The notes beneath the pieces are model-generated. The model saw nothing but the letters and a program-made list of their open reading frames with translations, made no database searches and had not been told where the DNA came from. The position numbers and the translations under genes were made by a program. This document shows, piece after piece, positions 15,491 to 27,958 of a stretch of 64,000 nucleotides of DNA. Within the stretch, counting starts at the first letter, position 1. The number at the start of each line of letters is the position of its first letter. This DNA is from an uncultured delta proteobacterium (GTDB lineage: Bacteria > Myxococcota_A > Polyangia > Fen-1088), in the NCBI GenBank assembly GCA_963767925.1, contig CAVYGB010000008.1:1984001-2048000 (forward strand), in the 5' to 3' direction.

Positions 15491-16422
15491 CCTTCGACTA
15501 TACCGCGGAGGCGGCTGCCCGCGGGGATCACCCTTCCCGCCAGCACCGCCGCCGCCGCGAGCCGCTTGCGGCCGGGGAGCTGCAGCTCGGCGAAGGCCAC
15601 CGCCCCTTGCCCGCAGGCCACCAGCAGGCCCTCGGCGCGGGCGCCCAGGACCTCTCCGGGCTCCCCCCGCTCCTCGCTGACGGTGGGGCCGAAGAGCTTC
15701 AGGCTCTCCCCCTCCAGCGTCGCGCTGGGACCGGGCCAGGGATCGACCCCCCGGGCCTGCGCCGAGACCAGCCGGGCCGGCAGGCGGAAGTCGAGCAGCC
15801 CGTGCTGCTTCTCCAGGGGCGGCGCGAGCGTCGCCCGGGCGTCGTCCTGAGGCTCGGGCGACACCTCACCCCGGCCGATGCGGGGCAGGGTCTCGAGCAG
15901 GAGGTCCGCCCCCAGGGTGGACAGCCGCTGGGCGAGCGAGCCCGCCGTGTCGGTCTCCGAGATCGGCTCCTCGCGCCGGGCCACCACCGCCCCGGTGTCG
16001 AGGCCCTCCTCGACCCGCATGATCGAGACCCCCGTGCGCGACTCGCCCCGGATGACCGCCCACTGGATGGGCGCTGCCCCCCGGTAGGCGGGCAAGAGGG
16101 AGGCGTGGACATTCCAGGGACCTCGCGGCGGGATCTCCAGCAGCGCGGGGGGCAAGATGCGCCCGTAGGCCACCACCACGAACAGGTCCGCCGATTGCGC
16201 CCGCAGCTTCTGCTGAAGCTCCGGCTCCTTGAGGCGCAGGGGCTGCTCCACCGGGATGCCGAGCTCGAGGGCGAGCTGCTTGACCGGCGGGGCGGTGAGG
16301 GTCCGGCCGCGGCCTGCTGGCCGATCGGGCTGGCTCACCACCAGGACCACCTCGTGCTGCTCCGCCACCCGGCGCAACGAGGGGACAGCGAACTCCGGGG
16401 AGCCGAAGAAGACGACCTTCAC
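15487..16422 (-). CDS. fmt: Methionyl-tRNA formyltransferase
   Basis: VFFGSPEFAVPSL, SQPDRPAGRG, NVHASLLPAYRGAAPIQW. Confidence 0.97.
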   Translation of the reverse strand: MKVVFFGSPEFAVPSLRRVAEQHEVVLVVSQPDRPAGRGRTLTAPPVKQLALELGIPVEQPLRLKEPELQQKLRAQSADLFVVVAYGRILPPALLEIPPRGPWNVHASLLPAYRGAAPIQWAVIRGESRTGVSIMRVEEGLDTGAVVARREEPISETDTAGSLAQRLSTLGADLLLETLPRIGRGEVSPEPQDDARATLAPPLEKQHGLLDFRLPARLVSAQARGVDPWPGPSATLEGESLKLFGPTVSEERGEPGEVLGARAEGLLVACGQGAVAFAELQLPGRKRLAAAAVLAGRVIPAGSRLRGIVEG

Positions 16423-17648
16423 GGCCGGCGGCCCGTCGGGGGCAAGAGGTGCTCGCGATAACGGCGGCGCAGGGCCTCGTCACCGAGGACCCGTCCGGCC
16501 TCGGCCAGCACGTCGCGGACGATCTCCAGCTCGCGAGCCAGCGTGACCGCCACCTCCGGATCGACCCGCTGGGGACCGATGTCCTCGGAGAGCCGACGGT
16601 GGGCCCGGGCTACCTCGGCCGCGGTCGCCTCCCGGGCCACCCCCAGGATCTGGAAGTAGTCGGCGTCCTGACTGAGGGCATAACGCGCCAGGATCCGCTC
16701 CCGATCGACCCGCTGGTCGAAGGTCCGCCGGCCGCGAGCCCGGCCCGGCTTCACCGGGGTGAGGAGGCCGAAACAGACGAGCACCAGCGCGAGGCGCGCG
16801 ACGAGGTCGTCCGGACGTCCGCTGGTCCGGGCGATGTCCTCCAGGGAACGCCGGCCGTCGAACCAGCCGAGCAGCTCCCGCTCGGCGGGCTCGAGGGCAA
16901 GCTCGGCCAGCAGGTCGGTGGCCTCCGGCCCGCGCGCGGCGGCGTAGAGGGTCGTGCCCTCGCCGAGGTGACGCTGGATCCGGGTGGCCGGGAAATCCCG
17001 GCGCAGGGCCTCGCGCACGAGGGCCGCCGGGTGCCGCAGCAGGCGGGTCTTGCGCGGCTCGAGCTCGGAGCGCGGGTCGAACCGGAAGCGCCCCTCGGTC
17101 CAGGGAAACAAGGACAGGATGATCTCCTCGTGCTGGGTCCGGAGCGCGGGCATCAGCTCGCCCGGCTTGAGCAGCCCCAGATCCACGAGCACCGCGCCCG
17201 TGCGCCGTCCGCTCCCGGCGGCCTGGCGCGCCACCCGACCCCGCTGATCGCTGTCGAGGCGGCCCTGCCGCAGCAACATCTCGCACAGGCGGTCTTCGAG
17301 CGCGCTGGAGGCCGCGTAGACCGGACGCCCGGCATCGAAGTGGATGCTCTTCTCCACCTCGCGCGCGCGCAGCGAGAGCTGTCCCGTCCAGACCTCCTGG
17401 TAGGCCCGGCCGAGCAGCAACGCCACGTCCGTCTCGGCCAGCTCACCGGCCCGGGCCAGGGTGGGCTCTGGCTCCGGGTCGGGCGCGCCCACCGTGCTCG
17501 CCGTCGCCAGCAGCTCGGCATCGAGCTGATCGTCGATCTCCGCGGTCAGGCGATCGGGCAGCGACGGCGCCAGGCCCGGCCCGGTCCCATCGCGGTCGTC
17601 ATCGGCGCGTGCCCGCCGCATGCGTCCCCGGGCCTCGGTCGTCGCCAT
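16419..17648 (-). CDS. DUF4388-like domain protein with C-terminal degenerate J-domain
   Basis: GEL...TGQLSL...KSIHFDAGRPVYAAS...RLCEML (DUF4388-like) and DYFQILGVAREATAAEV (J-like, HPD absent); start uncertain. Confidence 0.7.
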   Translation of the reverse strand: MATTEARGRMRRARADDDRDGTGPGLAPSLPDRLTAEIDDQLDAELLATASTVGAPDPEPEPTLARAGELAETDVALLLGRAYQEVWTGQLSLRAREVEKSIHFDAGRPVYAASSALEDRLCEMLLRQGRLDSDQRGRVARQAAGSGRRTGAVLVDLGLLKPGELMPALRTQHEEIILSLFPWTEGRFRFDPRSELEPRKTRLLRHPAALVREALRRDFPATRIQRHLGEGTTLYAAARGPEATDLLAELALEPAERELLGWFDGRRSLEDIARTSGRPDDLVARLALVLVCFGLLTPVKPGRARGRRTFDQRVDRERILARYALSQDADYFQILGVAREATAAEVARAHRRLSEDIGPQRVDPEVAVTLARELEIVRDVLAEAGRVLGDEALRRRYREHLLPPTGRRP

Positions 17649-17722
17649 GACCTTGATCAAAGCACGCGGCACGGGTCCCCGTCGACCATCTCGCGGCTTA
17701 CACCCCCGTACAGGGGCCTCGC

Positions 17723-20185
17723 TCAGAGCACGCTCTGCGGGTCGACGTCGACCACCAGCCGGACGCCGCCGGGAAGGACCCCGGCCGCCGCCTGCCGGGC
17801 GGTCGCCGCCAGGGCGGCGCGGTCGGCCGACCCCAGCCACACCTGCCAGCGGACCTGGCCGCGCAGGAACGCGATGGGCGCCTCGGCCGGACCCTTGACC
17901 GCCACTCCGGCGCCCGCGGCCAGGGCCCGTTCGGCCACCAGGGTCGCCGCCCGCCGGACCTCGGCGCCGTCTTGGCCCTCGAGCCTCAGGGCGATCAACC
18001 GGGCAAACGGCGGGTAGCTGGATTCCTGCCGGCGGCTCAGCTCACCCCGCACGAAGCCCTCGTAGTCGTGGGTGGGCAGCGCCACGACGGCCGGGTGGTC
18101 GGGGGTGAAGGTCTGGACGATCACCCGCCCCGGACGGTCCCCCCGCCCGGCCCGGCCCGCCACTTGCTCGAGGAGCTGGAAGGTCCGCTCCGCCGCCCGG
18201 AAGTCCGGCATGTGCATCCCCTGGTCGGGCAGCAGCGCGCCCACCAGGGTGACCCCCTCGAAGTCGTGCCCCTTCGTCACCATCTGGGTGCCCACCAGGA
18301 TGTCGACCTCCCGGCGCTGGACGCGGGCCAGCACCTGCTCGAGCACGGCGCCGCTGTTGCCGCCGGTGCTGTCCCGATCCAGCCGGGCCACCCGGGCGGT
18401 CGGGAACAGCTCGCGCACGAGGGTCTCCACCCGCTCGGTGCCAGCGCCCAGCCGCTCGAGCTTGGGGCGCGCGCAGGACGGGCAATTCACCGGCGGCGCC
18501 AGGGTCAAGCCGCAGTAGTGGCAGGCCAGCTCGGCGCGCGCCCGGTGGAAGGTCATCGACACCGCACACTGGCTGCAGCGCAGGACGTGACCGCAGGCCC
18601 GACAGAGCACCAGCGGGGAGAAGCCCCGCCGGTTGAGGAACAGGATGGCCTGCTCGCCCGCCTCCAGGGTCTGGCGGACGGCCTCCAGCAGACGCTTGGT
18701 GAACAGCCCGTCGGCCAGGAGCGGCTCGCGCCGGAGGTCCACGATCTCCACCGGCGGCAAAGGGCGCAGGGCGGCCACCGGGTTGGCCCGGGTGGGGAGG
18801 AGCAGCCGCCGGTAACGGCCTTGCTGGACGTTGTGCTGGCTCTCGAGCGAGGGCGTCGCCGAGCCCAGGACGGCTACCGCTCCCGCGCGCTGCGCGCGCA
18901 CCAGGGCCAGGTCGCGCCCGTGGTAGCGGAGCCCCTCCTCCTGCTTGAACGAGGAGTCGTGCTCCTCGTCGACAACCACCACCCCGAGGTCCCGCACGGG
19001 GGCAAACACCGCGGACCGCGCGCCGAGGGCGATCCCCACCTCGCCGGCGCGCAGGCGCCGCCAGGCGGTGCGGCGCTGGGCGGGTGGCAGGCCGCTGTGC
19101 AGGACCGACACGTCGTCGCCGAAGCGGGCCCGGAAACGGGCGGCGAGCTGGGGGGTCAGCGGAATCTCGGGGACCAGGACCAGGGCGCCACGGCCCTGCC
19201 GGCGCGCCTCGGCGATGAGCCGCAGGTAGATCTCCGTCTTGCCGGACCCCGTCACTCCCTGGAGCACGAAGGCCTGGAACCGGCCCCGCTCGGCAAGCGC
19301 GGCCGAGAGGGCCACCAGCGCCTCGGCCTGGTGGGGGTTGAGCTGGGGGACCTCCGCCGGCTGGTCCGGCCCCGGCGGCCGCGGGTCGGAGCGCTCCTCC
19401 AGCCGCACCACCCCCGCCCGCTCGAACGTGCGCACGGCCTGGCGCTCCCGCCGGTCCAGGCTCGCGACGGCGAGCCCCTCGCCGGCCTGCTGCAGCCGCT
19501 GGTAGAGCGCCCGCGCGATCTGCTGCCGGGGCCCGAAGCCGGGAGCCGGCCGATCCTCGACGACCCTGGCCCAGAGCTGGACGCGGCCCTGGCTGCGCCC
19601 GGCGATCTGGTCGCCCACCTCGACGTAACCCAGCTCGACGAGCCGGGGCAACCGGGGCTCGGCCCGGGTGCCGGCCAGCCCCCGCAGGCCCAGCCCCTGC
19701 CCTTGCGAGAGCCGGCGCAGCAGCTCCCGATCGTGCTCGTCCAGGCCCAGGCCGACGAAGCCCGCCTTGCCCTCCTCGTCCCGCCGCAGGAACAGCCGCC
19801 CCGCTTCGGTCAGCCGGATGCGGCGGGCGGCGGCGGCCCGCTCGCCCTGGGGCAGGGCCGCCCTCAGCACCTCTCCGAGCGGGGCCAGGTAGTAGCCGGC
19901 CGCCCAGCGGCACAGGTCCAGGACCTCCGGTTCCAGGGCGGGCTCGTCCTCCAGCACCGCCTCGATCGCCCGCACCTCCGCCGGACCTTCGGTCGGGTGA
20001 CCGACGACGAACCCGGTCACGCGCCGGCTGCCCAGGGGGACCACGACCTGCGCCCCGAGGGACGCGCGCTCGCCGAGCCGCGGATCGCGGTAGGTGAAGA
20101 CGGCGAACGGAGGCAGGGCCAGGGCGACCTCGAGGAGGCCGTCGGCCGCCTTGCTCCGCCGCTCCGCCCGAACGCCCTCGGTCAT
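17723..20185 (-). CDS. priA: Primosomal protein N' (replication restart helicase)
   Basis: GVTGSGKTEIY, LVPEIPLTPQ, DEEHDSSFKQ, four CxxC pairs, GTQMVTKGHDF, DVDP C-terminus. Confidence 0.97.
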   Translation of the reverse strand: MTEGVRAERRSKAADGLLEVALALPPFAVFTYRDPRLGERASLGAQVVVPLGSRRVTGFVVGHPTEGPAEVRAIEAVLEDEPALEPEVLDLCRWAAGYYLAPLGEVLRAALPQGERAAAARRIRLTEAGRLFLRRDEEGKAGFVGLGLDEHDRELLRRLSQGQGLGLRGLAGTRAEPRLPRLVELGYVEVGDQIAGRSQGRVQLWARVVEDRPAPGFGPRQQIARALYQRLQQAGEGLAVASLDRRERQAVRTFERAGVVRLEERSDPRPPGPDQPAEVPQLNPHQAEALVALSAALAERGRFQAFVLQGVTGSGKTEIYLRLIAEARRQGRGALVLVPEIPLTPQLAARFRARFGDDVSVLHSGLPPAQRRTAWRRLRAGEVGIALGARSAVFAPVRDLGVVVVDEEHDSSFKQEEGLRYHGRDLALVRAQRAGAVAVLGSATPSLESQHNVQQGRYRRLLLPTRANPVAALRPLPPVEIVDLRREPLLADGLFTKRLLEAVRQTLEAGEQAILFLNRRGFSPLVLCRACGHVLRCSQCAVSMTFHRARAELACHYCGLTLAPPVNCPSCARPKLERLGAGTERVETLVRELFPTARVARLDRDSTGGNSGAVLEQVLARVQRREVDILVGTQMVTKGHDFEGVTLVGALLPDQGMHMPDFRAAERTFQLLEQVAGRAGRGDRPGRVIVQTFTPDHPAVVALPTHDYEGFVRGELSRRQESSYPPFARLIALRLEGQDGAEVRRAATLVAERALAAGAGVAVKGPAEAPIAFLRGQVRWQVWLGSADRAALAATARQAAAGVLPGGVRLVVDVDPQSVL

Positions 20186-20201
20186 CGATCCGCCGCGGGG
20201 C

Positions 20202-21317
20202 TCAGGCCCGCTGCCACCCGGACATGCCGCCGGTGGGTGGCGGCGCCTCCGGTTCGCTGGGGGAGGCCTGGCTGGCGGCGGGCGGGCTGGATCCGGTGTA
20301 GACGACGCGAAGGATCTCGGCGACCGCCTCGTAGAGCGCTTCGGGGATCTCGTCCCCCTCCTCCACGTCGCGCAGAGCACGCGCCAGGCTGACGTCCCGG
20401 AAGATCGGCACGCCCGACTCGCGCGCGATCTCCTTGATCTTCTCGGCGAGGATCCGTTCGCCCTTGGCGACAACGAGGGGGGCCTCCTGCGAGTCCTTCT
20501 CGTAGCGAATGGCGACGGCGATGTGATCGGGGTTGACCACCACGAAATCCGCTTTGCGAACGGCGTTCAGCATACGCTGCTGGAGCAGCTCCTTGTGCAG
20601 CCGCATCCGCTCGTGTTTGTGATGCGGGTCACCTTCCTGCTCCTTGTGCTCGCGCTTGACCTCCTCGCGCGTCATCCGCAGCTCCTTCATGTGCCGGTGA
20701 CGCTGCCACAGGAAGTCTCCGAAGCCGATGACCGCGACCACCAGCACCATCCACTGGCCCAGTCGCCCGCTGGCGTGCCCCAGCACCACCAGGAGCTCGC
20801 GAGGGGTGGCCCCCGAGAGCTGGGTCAATGACCGCATGAGCGGCTCGATGGCCGCGTAGGCCACCGCGGCAGCGAGGCCGATCTTAACGAAGCCCTTCAC
20901 CATCTCGACCAGCGACTGCATGCTGACCACCCGCTTGAAGTCGGGCATCAGCTTCTGGGTATCGAACTTCAGCGCCTCCAGCGCGAACACGCCGCCCGTC
21001 TGCATGAATCCGATCCCGATGGCCGCCACCACGGCCGCGATGAGCGGGGCGACGAGGGCGTTCCGCAGGGCCATCAACCCCCGGGTGAGCTGGGGCACGA
21101 CCGTCTTTTCGCTGGCCGCCACCTCGAGGGCGGTCTTCATGTGCGCGAGCAGGCCGCCGATCCATCCCTCCGCGCTCACGCTCAGCACCATGAAGATGGC
21201 GATGAAGACCACCCCCCCGGTCAGATCGCGGCTCATCGCGACCTGACCCTTCTTGCGGGCGTCGGTCAGCCGCTTGTGAGACGGTTCTTCTGTCTTTTCG
21301 CCGGCCGACTCCGCCAT
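20202..21317 (-). CDS. flhB: Type III secretion export switch protein SctU/FlhB family
   Basis: EKTEEPSHKRL..ARKKGQV, LRMTREEVKREHKEQEGDP, NPDHIAVAIRY, APLVVAKG, IPEALYEAVAEIL. Confidence 0.93.
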   Translation of the reverse strand: MAESAGEKTEEPSHKRLTDARKKGQVAMSRDLTGGVVFIAIFMVLSVSAEGWIGGLLAHMKTALEVAASEKTVVPQLTRGLMALRNALVAPLIAAVVAAIGIGFMQTGGVFALEALKFDTQKLMPDFKRVVSMQSLVEMVKGFVKIGLAAAVAYAAIEPLMRSLTQLSGATPRELLVVLGHASGRLGQWMVLVVAVIGFGDFLWQRHRHMKELRMTREEVKREHKEQEGDPHHKHERMRLHKELLQQRMLNAVRKADFVVVNPDHIAVAIRYEKDSQEAPLVVAKGERILAEKIKEIARESGVPIFRDVSLARALRDVEEGDEIPEALYEAVAEILRVVYTGSSPPAASQASPSEPEAPPPTGGMSGWQRA

Positions 21318-21338
21318 GGTTGAGGCCTCCCCTGCCCC

Positions 21339-22130
21339 TCAGCGCCACACGGCGAAGGCCCGCTCCACCATGACGTACCAGCCCCGGAAGGCCCCGCTGA
21401 GCGCGCCCTCGATCCCGCCCAGGCCCACGAGGACGATCCCCACCCCGGCCATCGCCTTGAGGGGCATGCCCACGAAGTAGACCGGGATCTGCGGCGCCAT
21501 CCGGGCGATGGCCCCCAGCACGAGATCGGCCACGAACAGGGCCACGATGGCCGGCGCCGCCAGGGCCAGGGTCGACTCCAGCAACATCGCGGTGGTGATC
21601 ACGACGAGCCGGGCCGCCGCCGCCAGGCTCTCCGGGGTGCCCGACAGGTCGAGGGGGACCGCCTGGTAGCTCCGGGCGAGCGCGGTGGCCACGTGGCCCA
21701 CTCCGCCCATCTCCAGGAAGATCACGGTCGCCAGCAGCAGGAAGATGTCCCCCAGCGGGCTGGCCCGGCCCTCGGTGATCGGGGAGATCACCTCGGCCAT
21801 GTTGGCACCCCGCAAGGTGTCGACGAGGCGGCCCGCCGACTCGGCGGCCCGGAACACCGAGGAGCCCACGAAGCCGACGGTGAAGCCCACCGCGGTCTCG
21901 CGCGCCAGCAGCAGGATCCAGTAGAGCCCCCCCGTCTGGGTCGGCAGGGCGGGCATCACCACCGGCAAGCAGATGGCCGAGAGGGCCAGCCCCAGCCCCA
22001 TGCGCACCTGCGCGGGGACGCTCTGGCCGCCAAAGGCGGGGATCAGGAACGCGATCGGGATGGTACGCATGGCGCCCACCCCCAGGGCCCAGAGCCAGCG
22101 GTCCAGGTCCCTTGGCAGCAAGTCCAGCAT
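21339..22130 (-). CDS. fliR: Type III export gate protein SctT/FliR family
   Basis: Hydrophobic 263 aa; PAFGGQSVPAQVR, AGRLVDTLRG, RMAPQIPVYFVGMPLK. Confidence 0.9.
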   Translation of the reverse strand: MLDLLPRDLDRWLWALGVGAMRTIPIAFLIPAFGGQSVPAQVRMGLGLALSAICLPVVMPALPTQTGGLYWILLLARETAVGFTVGFVGSSVFRAAESAGRLVDTLRGANMAEVISPITEGRASPLGDIFLLLATVIFLEMGGVGHVATALARSYQAVPLDLSGTPESLAAAARLVVITTAMLLESTLALAAPAIVALFVADLVLGAIARMAPQIPVYFVGMPLKAMAGVGIVLVGLGGIEGALSGAFRGWYVMVERAFAVWR

Positions 22131-22143
22131 GGGCCCGTCGCGG

Positions 22144-22422
22144 TCAGCGCAAGGTGGACACCGAGGCCAGGACCGTCTGGGTGAAGCGCAGGAGCTGAGC
22201 GCCCAGCAGCGGCCCGAGCGCCACCAGCACGATCACGACGATCAGCAGCTTGGGCACGAAGGAGACCGTCTGGTCCTGGATCTGGGTGGCGGCCTGGAAC
22301 ACGCCCACGAAGAGACCTATCGCCAGGCTCGCGATCAGCGGCGGCGCCGACAGGACGATCACCAGGAGCAGACCCTCCCGGATCACCCGCAAGACGACAT
22401 CGAGAGCCGAGACGCTAGACAT
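22144..22422 (-). CDS. fliQ: Type III export gate protein SctS/FliQ family
   Basis: GLFVGVFQAATQIQDQTVSFVPKL. Confidence 0.93.
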   Translation of the reverse strand: MSSVSALDVVLRVIREGLLLVIVLSAPPLIASLAIGLFVGVFQAATQIQDQTVSFVPKLLIVVIVLVALGPLLGAQLLRFTQTVLASVSTLR

Positions 22423-23128
22423 AACTCTCCACCAGTCCCCGCAGGATGAGTTGCCAGCCGTCCGCGAGCACGAACAGCAGGAGCTTGAACGGAAGAGAGA
22501 CCGTTGTCGGCGACAACATGTGCATGCCGAGCGCGAGCAAGATGTTGGCGATCACCATGTCGACGACCAGGAAGGGTACGAACAGCAAGAACCCGATCTC
22601 GAAGGCCCGTCGGAGCTCCGAGGTCAAGAAGGCGGGCACGATGATCAGGAGGTCCCGATCGGTGATCCCGGCCCGCTCGGTGGGGGCGCGCATGCGCAGA
22701 GACAGGCCGTGGAACAGCGCCCGGTCGCGGGCGTTGCTGTGCTTGAGCAGGAACTCGCGCAGCGGCTCCTTGACCCGCTCGGCGGCCTGCTCCATCACGG
22801 CGATCGACTGGGCGCTCATCACCGAAGCGCCGGACCCCCGCTCCAGCAAGGGCTCGATCGCCTTGTACATGCGCTCACCGGTCGGCGCCATGACGTAGAG
22901 GGTGAGCAACATGGCCAGGCCCGTGATCACCTGATTCGGGGGGATCTGCGGGGTGCCCAGGGCGCCCTTCAGGATGGAGAGCACCACGGCGATGCGCACG
23001 AAGCTCGTCACCAGAAGCAAGACGAACGGCAGCAACGACAGCGCCGCCATCGCGATGATGAGCGTCAGGGGCCGGGTCGTCAGCGAGCCGCCGCGGTCGG
23101 CGGCCTGCGCCAGCGCCAGTAGGGTCAT
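22415..23128 (-). CDS. fliP: Type III export gate protein SctR/FliP family
   Basis: TSFVRIAVVLSIL..ALGTPQIPPNQV, PAFLTSEL..AFEIGF, LGMHMLSPTTVSLPFKLLLFVLADGW. Confidence 0.93.
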   Translation of the reverse strand: MTLLALAQAADRGGSLTTRPLTLIIAMAALSLLPFVLLLVTSFVRIAVVLSILKGALGTPQIPPNQVITGLAMLLTLYVMAPTGERMYKAIEPLLERGSGASVMSAQSIAVMEQAAERVKEPLREFLLKHSNARDRALFHGLSLRMRAPTERAGITDRDLLIIVPAFLTSELRRAFEIGFLLFVPFLVVDMVIANILLALGMHMLSPTTVSLPFKLLLFVLADGWQLILRGLVESYV

Positions 23129-23162
23129 AGTCCGGGTCCTCCAGGGTTGGGCGCGCGCACGC

Positions 23163-23585
23163 TCAGCCCTCGTGTTCGGTTTCGGGCCGGCTGGGCAGCG
23201 GCTGCGACCGCTCCATCGGGCCGGGACGGGCCAGGATGCGGCTCAAGATCTGGTTGAAGCGACTCCGGGTGGCGCGACCAAGCCGGCTCGCCGCCGGCTC
23301 CTCGACCTTCACCTGGCTGGGGTCGACCTCCGCCAGCAGGGTCATTCCGCCGTCGCTGGCGCCGACCAGGAAACAGCGCCCGGCTGCCTCCAGCAGGAAA
23401 AACGACCGCTTGGGCTCAGGCGAGCAGCGGGCGATGACCCGAATTGGACCGCCGCCGGGACCCATGCCCCGGCGGGATACCCACTTCAGAACGACATACG
23501 CCAGGAGGCAAACCAGTCCCAGCGACAGGAAGCTGAGCGCGACAGAGCCTCCCAGGCCTGGAATTTCCGCAGCCTGAGCGTCCAT
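23163..23585 (-). CDS. fliO: FliO-like protein
   Basis: Single N-terminal TM then 'IRVIARCSPEPKRSFFLLEAAGRCFLVGASDGGMTLLAEV'; directly upstream of fliP. Confidence 0.7.
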   Translation of the reverse strand: MDAQAAEIPGLGGSVALSFLSLGLVCLLAYVVLKWVSRRGMGPGGGPIRVIARCSPEPKRSFFLLEAAGRCFLVGASDGGMTLLAEVDPSQVKVEEPAASRLGRATRSRFNQILSRILARPGPMERSQPLPSRPETEHEG

Positions 23586-23629
23586 AGGAGCCTGGTCGTC
23601 TTACCACAGGCCCCCCTTCCGGCGGGAAG

Positions 23630-24295
23630 CTACTTTTTCTTGGCCTTAACGGACTCGGACTTTCCCGCGGCCTTCGCCGAGGGCTTGGCCTTGGCCGAAG
23701 GACCGGTGGCCTGCTTGGCCCGCTGCTTGGCGGCGCCGCGGGTCCCCTCGTCGTCGGAGGACTTCGCCTTGGCTGCCTTGGCAGGCTTCTCGCCCTTTTC
23801 AGCCTTGCCACCGGCGGCCTTCTTGCCTGCGGAAGCCCCCTTGGCTCCCGCCTCGGGCTCCGGCTGCTCCGCCACCGCTGGCTGACCGTCGGGGATCAGC
23901 TCGAGGAGCGAGATCGGCGCCGCGTCGCCCGGCCGGTTGCCGATCTTGACGATGCGGGTGTACCCGCCCGGTCGCCCGAGATAACGGGGGCCGATCTCGT
24001 CGAACAGCTTGACCACCGCACCCCGGTCCCGCACCCAGCGACGGGCCATGCGAACCGCGTGAACGACGCGGGCCTTCTCCTCGCGCGTCCGCGACTCCGG
24101 CTCCTTGGTGAGCACGTCGCCCAGCCGCCGGGCCAGCGTGATGGTCCGCTCCGCGATCCGCCGGGTTGCCTTCGCCTTGGCGTCGGTGGTTCGGATGCGC
24201 TCGTGCGTGAACAGCGAGGCGATCAGGTTGGAAAAGAGCGCCCGCCGGTGAGCCGACGTACGCGATAAATGGACTCCAGCACGTTGATGTCGCAT
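23630..24295 (-). CDS. rplQ: 50S ribosomal protein L17 with internal insert and long Lys/Ala-rich tail
   Basis: MRHQRAGVHLSRTSAHRRAL, RPGGYTRIVKIG.RPGDAA. Confidence 0.97.
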   Translation of the reverse strand: MRHQRAGVHLSRTSAHRRALFSNLIASLFTHERIRTTDAKAKATRRIAERTITLARRLGDVLTKEPESRTREEKARVVHAVRMARRWVRDRGAVVKLFDEIGPRYLGRPGGYTRIVKIGNRPGDAAPISLLELIPDGQPAVAEQPEPEAGAKGASAGKKAAGGKAEKGEKPAKAAKAKSSDDEGTRGAAKQRAKQATGPSAKAKPSAKAAGKSESVKAKKK

Positions 24296-24399
24296 GGGAA
24301 GGCCTGAGCCGTGAAGTGCTCTCGCTGTTGGTGATTCTTGGGGCGCTCCTGGGGCGTTTCCCAGGGCGCTGCTTGGGGCGTCTCTTTAAAGGCGTCTCT

Positions 24400-25437
<1,038 letters not shown>

Positions 25438-25490
25438 CTTCTTCTCCTCTCGGTCCTAGGCCGTCAAACTCTTGCCGCTGCTCACCCGGA

Positions 25491-26120
25491 TCACCTCGAG
25501 TAGAGCTCGACGATGAGCTGCTCGCGGATCGGCATGGTGAGATCGTCCCGGGACGGCAACGCCGTCAACTTTCCCTCGAAGGCGTCCTTGCTGAGCTGCA
25601 ACCACTTGGGCACGCCCCGCCGCTCCACCGCCGCCAGGCTCTCCTGGACACGGGTGATCTTGCGGGAACCCTCCCGCACGGAGATGGCGTCGCTGGCCCG
25701 GCAAAGGAAAGAGGGGATGTCCACCTTGCGACCGTTGACCCGCAGGTGCCCGTGGCGGACGAGCTGGCGAGCCTCGGCGTGGTCGGAGGCGAAGCCCAGC
25801 CGGTAGACCACGTTGTCCAGGCGCCGCTCGAGGAGCTGGAGCAAGTTCTCGCCGGTCACGCCCTTCATGCGGACGGCCTTGAAGTAGTAGCCCCGGAACT
25901 GCCGCTCGGCGAGGCCGTACATACGCTTGACCTTCTGCTTCTCGCGGAGCTGCAGGCCATAGTTGGACAGCTTGCGACGGCGAGCCTGGCCGTGCTGACC
26001 GGGGGCGTAAGCCCGCCGCTCGTAGCCGCACTTGTCGGTGTAGCAGCGATCGCCCTTGAGGAAGAGCTTCATGTCTTCGCGGCGGCAAAGACGACAGACC
26101 GGACCAGAGTATTTCGCCAT
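25491..26120 (-). CDS. rpsD: 30S ribosomal protein S4 (Cys/zinc type)
   Basis: [31 protein letters not shown]. Confidence 0.99.
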
Positions 26121-26144
26121 GGATGCTGAGCTTTCTCGAGGACC

Positions 26145-26543
26145 TTAAACGCGCCTGCGCTTGGGCGGCCGGCAACCGTTGTGGGGAATGGGGGTCAAAT
26201 CGCGGATGAGGCTGATGCGCAGGCCGGTCGCGGCCAGGGCCCGCAGGGCCGATTCGCGCCCCGCCCCGGGTCCCTTGATGAACACGTTCACCGACTTCAT
26301 CCCGTGCTCCATCGCCTTGTGAGCGGCGTCTTCCGCGGCGAGCTGGGCGGCGAAGGGGGTCGACTTGCGCGAGCCCTTGAACCCCTTCACACCCGAGGAG
26401 GACCAGGCCACCACGTTGCCCGAGACGTCGGTGATGGTGACGATGGTGTTGTTGAACGAGGCGGTGATGTGCGCGATCCCGCTCTGGACGTTCTTCTTGG
26501 CCTTCTTCGCCTTGGGCTTCTTCTCGGCTGTTTCGGTCGACAT
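26145..26543 (-). CDS. rpsK: 30S ribosomal protein S11
   Basis: [33 protein letters not shown]. Confidence 0.99.
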
Positions 26544-26589
26544 CGGTGGCTTTGATCCTCTCGTGTTGGCTCGGCGGCGAGGTCTCGGC

Positions 26590-26976
26590 TCAGGCGCCCG
26601 GTCCGTCTTTGCGCTTGATCATCTGACCCTTACGCGGCCCCTTACGGGTCCGGGCGTTGGTGTGGGTGCGCTGACCGCGCACGGGGAGATTTCGGCGGTG
26701 GCGCAAGCCCCGGTAGCAGCCGAGGTCCATGAGGCGCTTGATGTTCATGGCGACGTCGCGTCGCAGATCACCCTCCACCTTGAGCTGCAAGGACTCGATG
26801 ACCTCGCGGATCCGGCGGGCTTCAGCATCGTCGAGATCGTCGCTTCGCTTGTCGAGCGACACCTCGGCCGCCCGCAGGATCTGGCGGGATCTCATCTTGC
26901 CCACGCCATAAAGGTACGTGAGCGCAACTTCCATTCGTTTGTTGCGGGGCAGGTCAACGCCGGCGATACGGGCCAT
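26590..26976 (-). CDS. rpsM: 30S ribosomal protein S13
   Basis: [36 protein letters not shown]. Confidence 0.99.
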
Positions 26977-27006
26977 GGGTCTTGGGCTCTCCTTGCGGTG
27001 GGCGGA

Positions 27007-27120
27007 TCAGCCTTGGCGCTGCTTGTGGCGCGCGTTCTCGCAGATCACCCGCACGACACCGCGCCGCCGGATGACTTTGCATTTCTCACAAACCTTCTTG
27101 ACCGATGCTCTGACCTTCAT
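27007..27120 (-). CDS. rpmJ: 50S ribosomal protein L36
   Basis: [37 protein letters not shown]. Confidence 0.98.
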
Positions 27121-27199
27121 GACAAATACTTCCCCACGACAATCGAGCGATTGATTTGAAACGGGGCCTTCTCGCGTTTCCCGGCTCTGTCGGCTCTCC

Positions 27200-27958
27200 T
27201 CAAGAGGCACGAGATAACACGTAGGGCCCCTCCTCGGTGATGGCCACCGAGTGCTCAAAATGGGCGGAGAGGCTACCATCTTTGGTCACAGCCGTCCAGC
27301 CGTCTTCCTCGATGACCACCTCGGGCCCCCCGGCGTTGATCATCGGCTCGATGGCGATGACCATACCGGCGCTGAGCCGCCCCCCCTTGCCCCGCTCACC
27401 GTAGTTCGGGACGTGGGGCGCCTCGTGCATCTCGCGCCCGATCCCGTGACCGACGAACTGGGTGACGACGGAGAAGCCCTTCGCCTCGACGAATGACTGG
27501 ATCGCCCAGCCGATGTCCCCCAGCCGGTGGCCTGGAGCGCACTGCGCTATGGCCAGATCCAGCGCGTCTCGCGTGGAATCCATCAGGGCCTGGGCCTCCG
27601 GCGTGACCTTCTTGCCCACGGCGATGGTCCGGGCCGAATCGCCGCACCAACCGTCCTTGAACGCCCCGAAGTCGACCGAGACGATGTCCCCGTCATCAAG
27701 GATGACGTCCTTGCGGGGGATGCCATGGACCACCACGCTGTTGACCGAGGTGCAGAGCACTGCCGGATACCCCCGGTAGCCCAGGAACGCCGATTCCCCC
27801 TTGAGGTGCTTGAGGCGCCGCGAGGCCACCTCGTTGAGCTCCCAGGTGCTGACGCCGGCGGCGATGGCCGCCTCCACCGCATCGAGCACGTCGGCGACGA
27901 TGAGGTTGGCCTCTCGCATCTTGGCGATCTGGGCCGTGGTCTTGAGCTGGATTCCCAT
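27200..27958 (-). CDS. map: Methionine aminopeptidase type I
   Basis: [41 protein letters not shown]. Confidence 0.98.

Follow-up and report, generated by a model that had tools for sequence, protein, structure and literature searches.

A type III export gate between rplQ and priA is probably the membrane part of a second, dispersed secretion system in an uncultured member of the Polyangia

The window analysed here is a stretch of 64,000 nucleotides from the genome of an uncultured delta proteobacterium of the class Polyangia (assembly GCA_963767925.1, contig CAVYGB010000008.1, positions 1,984,001 to 2,048,000). On its minus strand, at positions 20202-23585, a listing of open reading frames (ORFs) and family scans identify five adjoining genes of a type III export gate, a fliO-like gene followed by sctR, sctS, sctT and sctU. 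All five products score above the Pfam gathering thresholds. The FliO-like protein (140 amino acids; 23163-23585), presumed to be the assembly factor of the SctR pentamer, scores 40.3 bits on Pfam FliO, where the cut-off is 22, and 45.2 bits on TIGR03500, under that model's cut-off of 55.25. SctR, the pore subunit of the export gate and a member of the FliP family (22415-23128), scores 227 bits on Pfam FliP. It is followed by SctS (FliQ family; 22144-22422; Bac_export_3, 90.5 bits), whose gene overlaps sctR by 8 bp, by SctT (FliR family; 21339-22130; Bac_export_1, 165 bits) and by SctU (FlhB family; 20202-21317; Bac_export_2, 351.3 bits). The gaps between genes inside the module range from -8 to +34 bp, and its G+C content of 0.65-0.73 is similar to that of the flanking DNA.

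The module lies between housekeeping genes on the same strand. Upstream is rplQ (23630-24295), which encodes ribosomal protein L17 (Pfam Ribosomal_L17, 104.9 bits) and is the final gene of the row rpsM-rpsK-rpsD-rpoA-rplQ; the ORFs of rpoA, rpsD, rpsK and rpsM are all found upstream of it. This L17 has 221 amino acids, and its C-terminal tail of about 85 residues, rich in lysine and alanine (23630-23890), diverges faster than the core among relatives. The spacer between rplQ and fliO (23586-23629) holds a 5-bp hairpin with G-rich sequence and no U tract after it, and then TGGTAAGAC. Downstream of the module the ATG of priA (17723-20185), a primosomal helicase gene whose product has six PriA/helicase Pfam domains, follows the sctU stop. 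After priA comes a gene for a protein with DUF4388 and a DnaJ domain (16419-17840), a position kept in many relatives (28-50% identity). An earlier note on this DNA had described five contiguous export-gate genes on one strand, beginning 44 bp after rplQ and ending 16 bp before priA. The genes, their positions and both spacings are as it described them. So is the lack of a U-tract terminator between rplQ and fliO, since a consensus scan found no terminator-like site on the minus strand either. The note had also remarked that genes for SctV, ATPase, ring, rod, hook and flagellin are lacking in the window; our gene-by-gene check, which covered 17000-27500, found none among the ORFs there, and all matches to such genes in the genome fall outside the window.

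Does the module serve a flagellum? The earlier note took the host to be non-flagellated, and in this it was wrong. The assembly (9.34 Mb, 71% G+C, 13 contigs, estimated completeness 83.8%) contains a full flagellar regulon in two blocks. The first (C8:502684-513999; C2 and C8 are contigs of the assembly) carries fliE, fliF, fliG, fliH, fliI, a rod gene, flgD, flgE, flbD and motAB. The second (C8:558290-580218) has the genes for flagellin and FliA together with fliD, fliS, flgK, flgL, flgM, flgI, flgH, flgG, flgF, flhF, flhA, flhB, fliR, fliQ, fliP, fliO, fliN, fliM and fliL. Because these blocks hold fliOPQR-flhBA, the flagellum has a complete gate of its own. The window gate and the flagellar gate comprise the same five families in the same order, fliO-P-Q-R and then flhB, and are 27-42% identical (42% for SctR against the genome's own FliP); the two FliO proteins are 36% identical across 59 amino acids only.

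How do the gate proteins score on models that separate the two kinds of system? SctR passes NF009438 (258.7 bits against a cut-off of 179) and TIGR01102 yscR (226.2 against 208.6), and fails TIGR01103 fliP (215.5 against 217.45). SctT does better on the SctT model (154.9 bits) than on the fliR model (137.4), as does SctU on the SctU model (327.3) compared with the flhB model (304.3), all four scores being under the cut-offs. SctS is placed slightly higher by the NCBIfam fliQ model than by the non-flagellar one, and among sequences of solved structures the closest to SctR is flagellar FliP (174.6 bits; SpaP, 132.6 bits). Taken together, the NCBIfam scores lean towards a non-flagellar assignment and are not decisive. 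Such an intermediate profile is what would be expected of a deep-branching lineage.

We therefore turn to the phylogeny of the gate. Trees were built from concatenated SctR, SctS, SctT and SctU of window-type and other loci, of the flagellar loci of relatives and of this genome, and of plasmid-borne references. The non-flagellar (NF) references were Ysc-type Aeromonas, Mxi-Spa Shigella, Rhizo Bradyrhizobium, Hrp1 Pantoea and Desulfo N. vulgaris; Hrp2 Burkholderia (SctU only) and flagellar Alloyangia, Ralstonia and Klebsiella were added. In the 50-row tree the Hrp2 row branched off at the flagellar group's base; it was omitted from the later trees. The myxobacterial rows are loci of metagenome-assembled genomes (MAGs) labelled Myxococcaceae or Myxococcales, and include none labelled M. 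xanthus. One split recurs in all three trees. On one side stand the window-type rows, a row from a groundwater deltaproteobacterial MAG and the clustered loci of the Myxococcaceae and Myxococcales MAGs; on the other stand the flagellar gates, including the genome's own, the classical NF references and an environmental clade. Its support is 97 by the Shimodaira-Hasegawa-like approximate likelihood ratio test (SH-aLRT; 50 rows, LG+G4), 98 by the same test (36 rows, LG+C20 with posterior mean site frequencies, PMSF) and 99 by ultrafast bootstrap (UFBoot; 36 rows, LG+F+G4, IQ-TREE). Each of three groups is a separate clade: the flagellar rows, among them those of this genome (support 98-100); the five classical NF references, which are Ysc, Mxi-Spa, Hrp, Rhizo and Desulfo (support 100); and the clusters of Acidobacteriota, UBA10199 and Eisenbacteria (SH-aLRT 95-97, UFBoot 98). 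In phylogeny, then, as in its distribution among genomes, the window gate is of neither the flagellar nor the classical injectisome kind, as the earlier note had supposed. The note had also raised the possibility of a complete flagellar set elsewhere in the genome with the window proteins nested in its clade; the set is present, and the nesting is not observed.

If the gate is not flagellar, what might its partners be? Family searches of the genome located second copies of the remaining core parts of a T3SS (type III secretion system) at four further loci, again among housekeeping genes. We refer to these and the window module, five separate loci on two contigs, as T3SS2. The SctV gene (FHIPEP family; C2:1269203-1271317) is on its own, with hisD/rplU-rpmA-obg on one side and an M16 peptidase gene on the other, and the C-terminal 484 amino acids of its product score 395.6 bits on the hrcV model against 306.1 on that of FlhA. 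At a second locus an ORF of 302 amino acids precedes sctL and sctN, with surA, typA and a HIT gene as neighbours; on the SctN equivalog model TIGR02546 the product of sctN scores 611.2, above the threshold of 604.75. At a third, sctQ is preceded by an SctP-like ORF of 334 amino acids that gives weak YscP/FliK C-terminal matches (E 0.05 and 0.02); SctQ itself reaches 91 bits on the SpaO/YscQ model, the cut-off being 100.8. The fourth (C8:3090367-3092616), beside pspA and holB, consists of a gene for a FliA/WhiG-like sigma factor (TIGR02479, 148.9 bits, below the cut-off of 189.6), sctI and sctJ. SctJ, of 260 amino acids, scores 143.7 bits on the SctJ model against 31.3 on that of FliF, so that the ring partner of T3SS2 is of the SctJ type, unlike that of a flagellum. 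SctI is assigned by a weak match (E 0.008) together with its position just before sctJ. For each of SctL, SctJ and SctQ injectisome-type models rank first, all below their cut-offs. With this, all members of the core (SctR, S, T, U, V, N, L, Q, J and I) have been located in the genome, SctI weakly and sctV with a broken frame. Given these second copies of partner genes in the same genome, the gate is not stand-alone, and the description of it as a stand-alone or minimal gate in the earlier note has to be given up; the partners at the four loci are, moreover, conserved together with it.

What is the 302-residue ORF before sctL (C8:1122183-1123091)? It is all-helical and conserved. Neither Pfam nor NCBIfam has a family that matches it, a profile built from six of its orthologues brought up no related sequence of solved structure, Foldseek returned nothing at E <= 0.001, and hhalign against the genome's own FliG gave a probability of 0.4%. 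Its look-alikes by language model are clusters of FliG domains, at 0.92 and below. VIA-align gave Z 6.0 for FliG and Z 4.3 for PscK, both below the level that the tool calls meaningful for helical proteins. The ORF may be FliG- or SctK-like, and we hold this only tentatively. As for an outer-membrane partner, the genome has four genes of the secretin family, each more than 250 kb from the T3SS2 loci or on another contig, and none of the five loci has a secretin SctC in it or close by.

Are these scattered genes retained together? The comparison is with relatives, which are MAGs from fens, soils and permafrost that bear the labels Myxococcota, Myxococcales or Polyangia. Orthologues of SctU, SctV, SctN, SctJ and SctQ occur in all 18 relatives of the family. 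Flagellin matches occur in 12 of the 18 and are absent from the other 6, and the flagellar rod family has no match in any of the five flagellin-less relatives searched for it (G002, G006, G011, G016 and G018). T3SS2 orthologues are kept in 6/6 of the flagellin-less relatives. T3SS2 is independent of the flagellum. The partner loci are syntenic across the family, as sigma-sctI-sctJ-pspA-holB, 302-residue ORF-sctL-sctN-HIT-surA, SctP-like ORF-sctQ-glgA-like gene, and sctV-M16 peptidase gene. For the five gate genes the ratio of nonsynonymous to synonymous substitution rates (dN/dS), measured against a genome of the same genus, is 0.12-0.23, which indicates purifying selection. SctN is 69-92% identical within the family.

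The place of the gate between rplQ and priA, which the earlier note had proposed as worth following in relatives, is kept in the family and partly beyond it. Among 20 loci fetched around the relatives' SctU matches, 17 are of the window type; the whole row rpoA-rplQ-fliO-sctRSTU-priA is present in nine of these, and contig ends or the limits of the fetched stretch truncate the remaining eight. In a wider set, the best 80 loci with one genome per species, 43 are of the window type. Here rplQ is directly upstream in 32, nine are too short to tell, and two lack rplQ although their upstream sequence extends past 4 kb. Outside the family the row is found in full under family codes f4 and f9 and in part under f6 and f8, and the class has close orthologues of SctR (at least 57% identity) under at least eight family codes. 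The adjacency of sctU and priA is retained in relatives, with a gap of 9 bp to 5.7 kb. One subclade has extra genes at the junctions: a PilZ-domain gene between rplQ and fliO (L090:4955-5374), ORFs without a Pfam match between sctT and sctU (251 amino acids or up to 2.8 kb; L090:7749-8504, L102:7868-10588) and a nucleotidyl-transferase gene between sctU and priA (L090:9562-10557).

How is the module transcribed? Among 46 unique upstream regions of relatives, 33 have an exact TTGACA 24-39 nt before the start of fliO; of 5000 windows taken from the same loci as a control, 37 contain it. The 46 include one flagellar locus, which lacks it. The TTGACA is followed after 17-19 nt by a -10 box resembling TAAGTC, TATAAC or TAACAG, and then by 6-11 nt to the start codon. 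The element is, on this pattern, a predicted conserved promoter of the sigma-70 type, and similar arrangements precede sctV and sctJ in relatives. With a promoter so near the start codon, the fliO mRNA would have little or no leader. In this genome and that of its congener, which have the shortest spacer of the set, only TGGTAAGAC is found, an extended -10-like sequence with no -35 box; in the window it sits 12 nt before the fliO ATG. With no terminator to separate fliO from rplQ, transcription may plausibly run on from the ribosomal operon in this genome. Outside this genus the module would be a transcription unit of its own, merely placed after rplQ. The co-expression with ribosomal genes suggested by the earlier note is accordingly plausible for this genus only, the module being isolated by a promoter of its own in most of the clade (33/46). 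For the same reason, and because two relatives have no rplQ in their long upstream regions, splicing into a ribosomal superoperon is not its general state. Two further candidates were rejected. A GGTAAGA element common to the regions upstream of fliO and sctI in this genome proved to be the -10 box of the promoter seen in relatives. A search for sigma-28 and sigma-54 promoters before the T3SS2 loci gave only two loose sigma-28-like matches in this genome, and the one before sctJ is absent from the corresponding regions of relatives, which have -10 boxes resembling TGnTAnnnT.

Self-cleavage of SctU/FlhB at the motif NPTH underlies substrate switching. The window SctU has NPDH at residues 267-270 instead. 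Among 46 unique SctU sequences of the window type, NPTH is found in 2, NPDH in 20 (the window included), NPEH in 4 and NPHV in 1. In contrast, the motif is NPTH in each of the 30 comparators, of which 11 are flagellar, 6 classical, 9 environmental and 4 Myxococcaceae-type. The remainder of SctU is conserved despite the change. Either switching may be dispensable where no hook or needle is built, or the constraint may be relaxing.

Which of the known systems does T3SS2 most resemble? A 'Myxo' NF-T3SS of the Cystobacterineae is described in the consulted portion of Abby and Rocha 2012 (PMC3459982), and excerpts of two further papers (PMC10433427, PMC12075869) describe the needle-less T3SS* of Myxococcus xanthus (mxan_2434-2464) and report that it is recruited by the Kil Tad pilus and needed for prey lysis. 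These systems come from the same phylum, and the window gate groups with the clustered Myxococcaceae loci in three trees. Those loci have the order SctI-SctJ-x-SctQ-FliO-SctRSTUV, a content that agrees with the listing for T3SS* in the excerpted reviews (PMC10433427). T3SS2 and the Myxo/T3SS* systems share the core SctI, J, Q, R, S, T, U, V, N and L, FliO is encoded with the gate in both, and no secretin is linked to the T3SS2 loci. They differ in that T3SS2 is spread over at least five loci among housekeeping genes, whereas Myxo/T3SS* lies in one cluster (a short or a long locus). T3SS2, moreover, is hosted by a family of the Polyangia and in this genome coexists with a full flagellum; its SctU has NPDH or has lost the Asn-Pro, whereas the Myxococcaceae-type loci have NPTH in 4/4; and no SctD or Tad/Kil partner was identified for it, nor an LcrH-type chaperone, for which no search was made. 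The earlier note's suggestion of an undescribed kind of system does not hold, because T3SS2 belongs with the needle-less myxobacterial lineage already described.

Chlamydial systems are equipped with secretin, needle and translocon and deliver effectors into eukaryotic cells by injection. Their NF-T3SS resembles T3SS2 in having its core genes spread over several loci, a scattering that Abby and Rocha, in the same portion of their paper (PMC3459982), tie to constitutive expression. In T3SS2, likewise, loci have their own sigma-70-like promoters (seen before fliO, sctV and sctJ). The window gate falls outside the classical NF clade in trees that contain no chlamydial sequence. Classical injectisomes, for their part, differ from T3SS2, which has no SctC at its loci, mostly lacks NPTH and lies outside the Ysc/Mxi-Spa/Hrp/Rhizo/Desulfo clade. 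Closer in sequence are environmental clusters (L123-L156; Acidobacteriota, UBA10199, Eisenbacteria), some from MAGs labelled 'uncultured Pseudomonadota', whose SctR is about 50% identical to that of the window. They run SctL-SctN-...-SctQ-(FliO)-SctRST(U), and no flagellar genes were seen in their vicinity; unlike T3SS2 they form their own clade, are clustered and not dispersed, and have NPTH in 9/9.

We conclude that the gate is probably the membrane part of a second, non-flagellar T3SS, which belongs to the myxobacterial needle-less lineage and whose pieces are scattered among housekeeping genes. Beyond the gene identities, genomic partners, co-conservation, phylogenetic grouping, promoter motif and purifying selection, which we observe, we infer the assembly of the pieces into one machine, its cargo, its destination and its transcription. 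On this account an ancestral single cluster would have been broken, in this uncultured family of the Polyangia, into at least five pieces: rplQ-fliO-sctRSTU-priA; sctV; FliG/SctK-like-sctL-sctN; SctP-like-sctQ; and FliA-like sigma-sctI-sctJ. By homology, FliO would aid the assembly of SctR5, and SctS, SctT and SctU would complete a gate of the type SctR5S4T1U1; SctV would form the ring around this gate, SctJ the inner-membrane ring, and SctQ, SctL and SctN the sorting platform and ATPase. The machine would pass unfolded proteins across the inner membrane. As neither secretin nor needle was identified, delivery might end in the periplasm or pass to some other conduit in the outer membrane. The genes look constitutively expressed; in this genus, where the -35 box is lost and rplQ has no terminator, ribosomal read-through probably contributes.

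Several points weigh against this conclusion. Compared with the same-genus genome, sctV has three single-base insertions (C2:1269420, 1269482 and 1269861) and may be broken in this assembly. SctD was not identified in the genome, where matches were at the level of the FHA domain only and below the cut-off; the needle family had no match in a search that lacked a positive control; and the Tad/Kil marker RcpC had no match in this 83.8%-complete assembly, so that the partner system used by the M. xanthus T3SS* is not evident here. The Asn-Pro is gone in 19 of the 46 window-type SctU sequences (DGDR, QSGV, EPGV and similar). Within the myxobacterial side of the trees support is only 54-74, so that the dispersed form may be sister to the clustered one or may contain it, and the Myxococcaceae loci are equated with T3SS* (or with the second M. 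xanthus locus) by gene content only. With regard to sctV, similar single-base frame breaks affect the flagellar fliI (C8:507182-508461) and a FliA-like gene (C8:751533-752176). These breaks, and an estimated completeness of 83.8% in 13 contigs, suggest indel errors of assembly, and for sctV an assembly error is at least as likely.

Could the scattered genes instead be the decaying remnants of a lost secretion system, persisting by linkage to essential neighbours? The sctV insertions, the degenerate NPTH and the loss of the -35 box in this genus would fit such a relic, and the M. xanthus loci were themselves initially annotated as relics, according to the portion of Abby and Rocha cited above (PMC3459982). 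However, the relatives listed have stop-free open frames (sctV orthologues encode 579-768 amino acids in full-length matches), and the identity of SctN, the dN/dS of the gate genes, the conserved gene order at five loci, the conserved promoter motif and the occurrence of SctR orthologues in so many families all speak against decay, which we regard as very unlikely. A gate that truly acts alone, FliO-SctRSTU serving as a membrane conduit or nanotube-type platform, is likewise very unlikely. The module is physically apart from all other T3SS genes, and a 'CORE' role of FliOPQR-FlhBA in nanotube biogenesis has been proposed for B. subtilis, according to an excerpt of PMC6456723. Yet the genomes with the gate also retain partner genes that share its non-flagellar type, and the related Myxococcaceae and Myxococcales loci join the gate with SctI, SctJ, SctQ and SctV; from the contiguity of these loci it would follow that the dispersed genes descend from one operon. 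We know, too, of no studied system in which SctRSTU does not require SctV and a ring. Hardest of all to sustain is a spare or specialised fliOPQR-flhB for the genome's own flagellum. The genome is flagellated, SctS does slightly better on the fliQ model, and the FliO gene and the weakly FliG-like ORF before FliH- and FliI-like genes recall flagellar operons. On the other hand, the gate stands outside the flagellar clade in three trees and is distant from the flagellar gate of this genome; the flagellar cluster already has a complete gate; the window-type gate is kept in the flagellin-less relatives and occurs where flagellar structural genes are missing; and FliO has already been reported in non-flagellar T3SS of Myxococcota, M. 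xanthus included, according to part of PMC12403147.

A different question is what the dispersed machine might do. FlgM export through the T3SS is established for flagellar systems. T3SS2 might chiefly export an FlgM-like anti-sigma factor and so control orphan FliA-like sigma factors, a secretion-coupled gene switch. This proposal concerns function and is compatible with the dispersed anatomy that we favour. A FliA/WhiG-like sigma gene lies directly upstream of sctI-sctJ, an adjacency found in 8/9 of the relatives' loci. The genome has three FliA-like genes, one flagellar, one neighbouring sctI-sctJ and one near C8:751.5-752.2 kb. An FlgM-family match was found in 5/5 of the flagellin-less relatives searched, three of them above the cut-off, and in those five T3SS2 is the only type III exporter seen, as judged from the lack of a rod-family match. 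However, the promoters before fliO, sctV and sctJ are sigma-70-like and not sigma-28-like, no FlgM gene adjoins any T3SS2 locus, co-occurrence among close kin is not independent evidence, and the loss of NPTH in many members speaks against a checkpoint that depends on substrate switching. We consider the switch unlikely. A bolder form, in which T3SS2 would be a constitutive, housekeeping-like inner-membrane exporter wired into core operons, with NPTH dispensable and with the export of an FlgM-like anti-sigma factor as one of its tasks, which would place the orphan FliA-like sigma factors under the control of secretion even without a flagellum, we likewise think unlikely.

In the literature searched we did not find a dispersed Myxo-type T3SS in the Polyangia, a link of such a gate to rplQ and priA, or the loss of NPTH. 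A 2026 preprint that surveys gene sets in Danish Myxococcota MAGs states, in the text available, that T3SS is primarily restricted to Myxococcia; its supplementary data might list single genes. A system in five loci would escape detection tools that rely on clusters. If the gate belongs, as we think probable, to a dispersed T3SS2, the needle-less lineage, which is regarded as a living intermediate between flagellum and injectisome, now reaches uncultured Polyangia. Flagellated and non-flagellated sister genomes that share T3SS2 offer a natural experiment, and members without the SctU autocleavage site bear on the need for substrate switching when neither needle nor hook is built. A multi-protein machine scattered stably, and long ago, over housekeeping operons would be a rare case outside the Chlamydiales.

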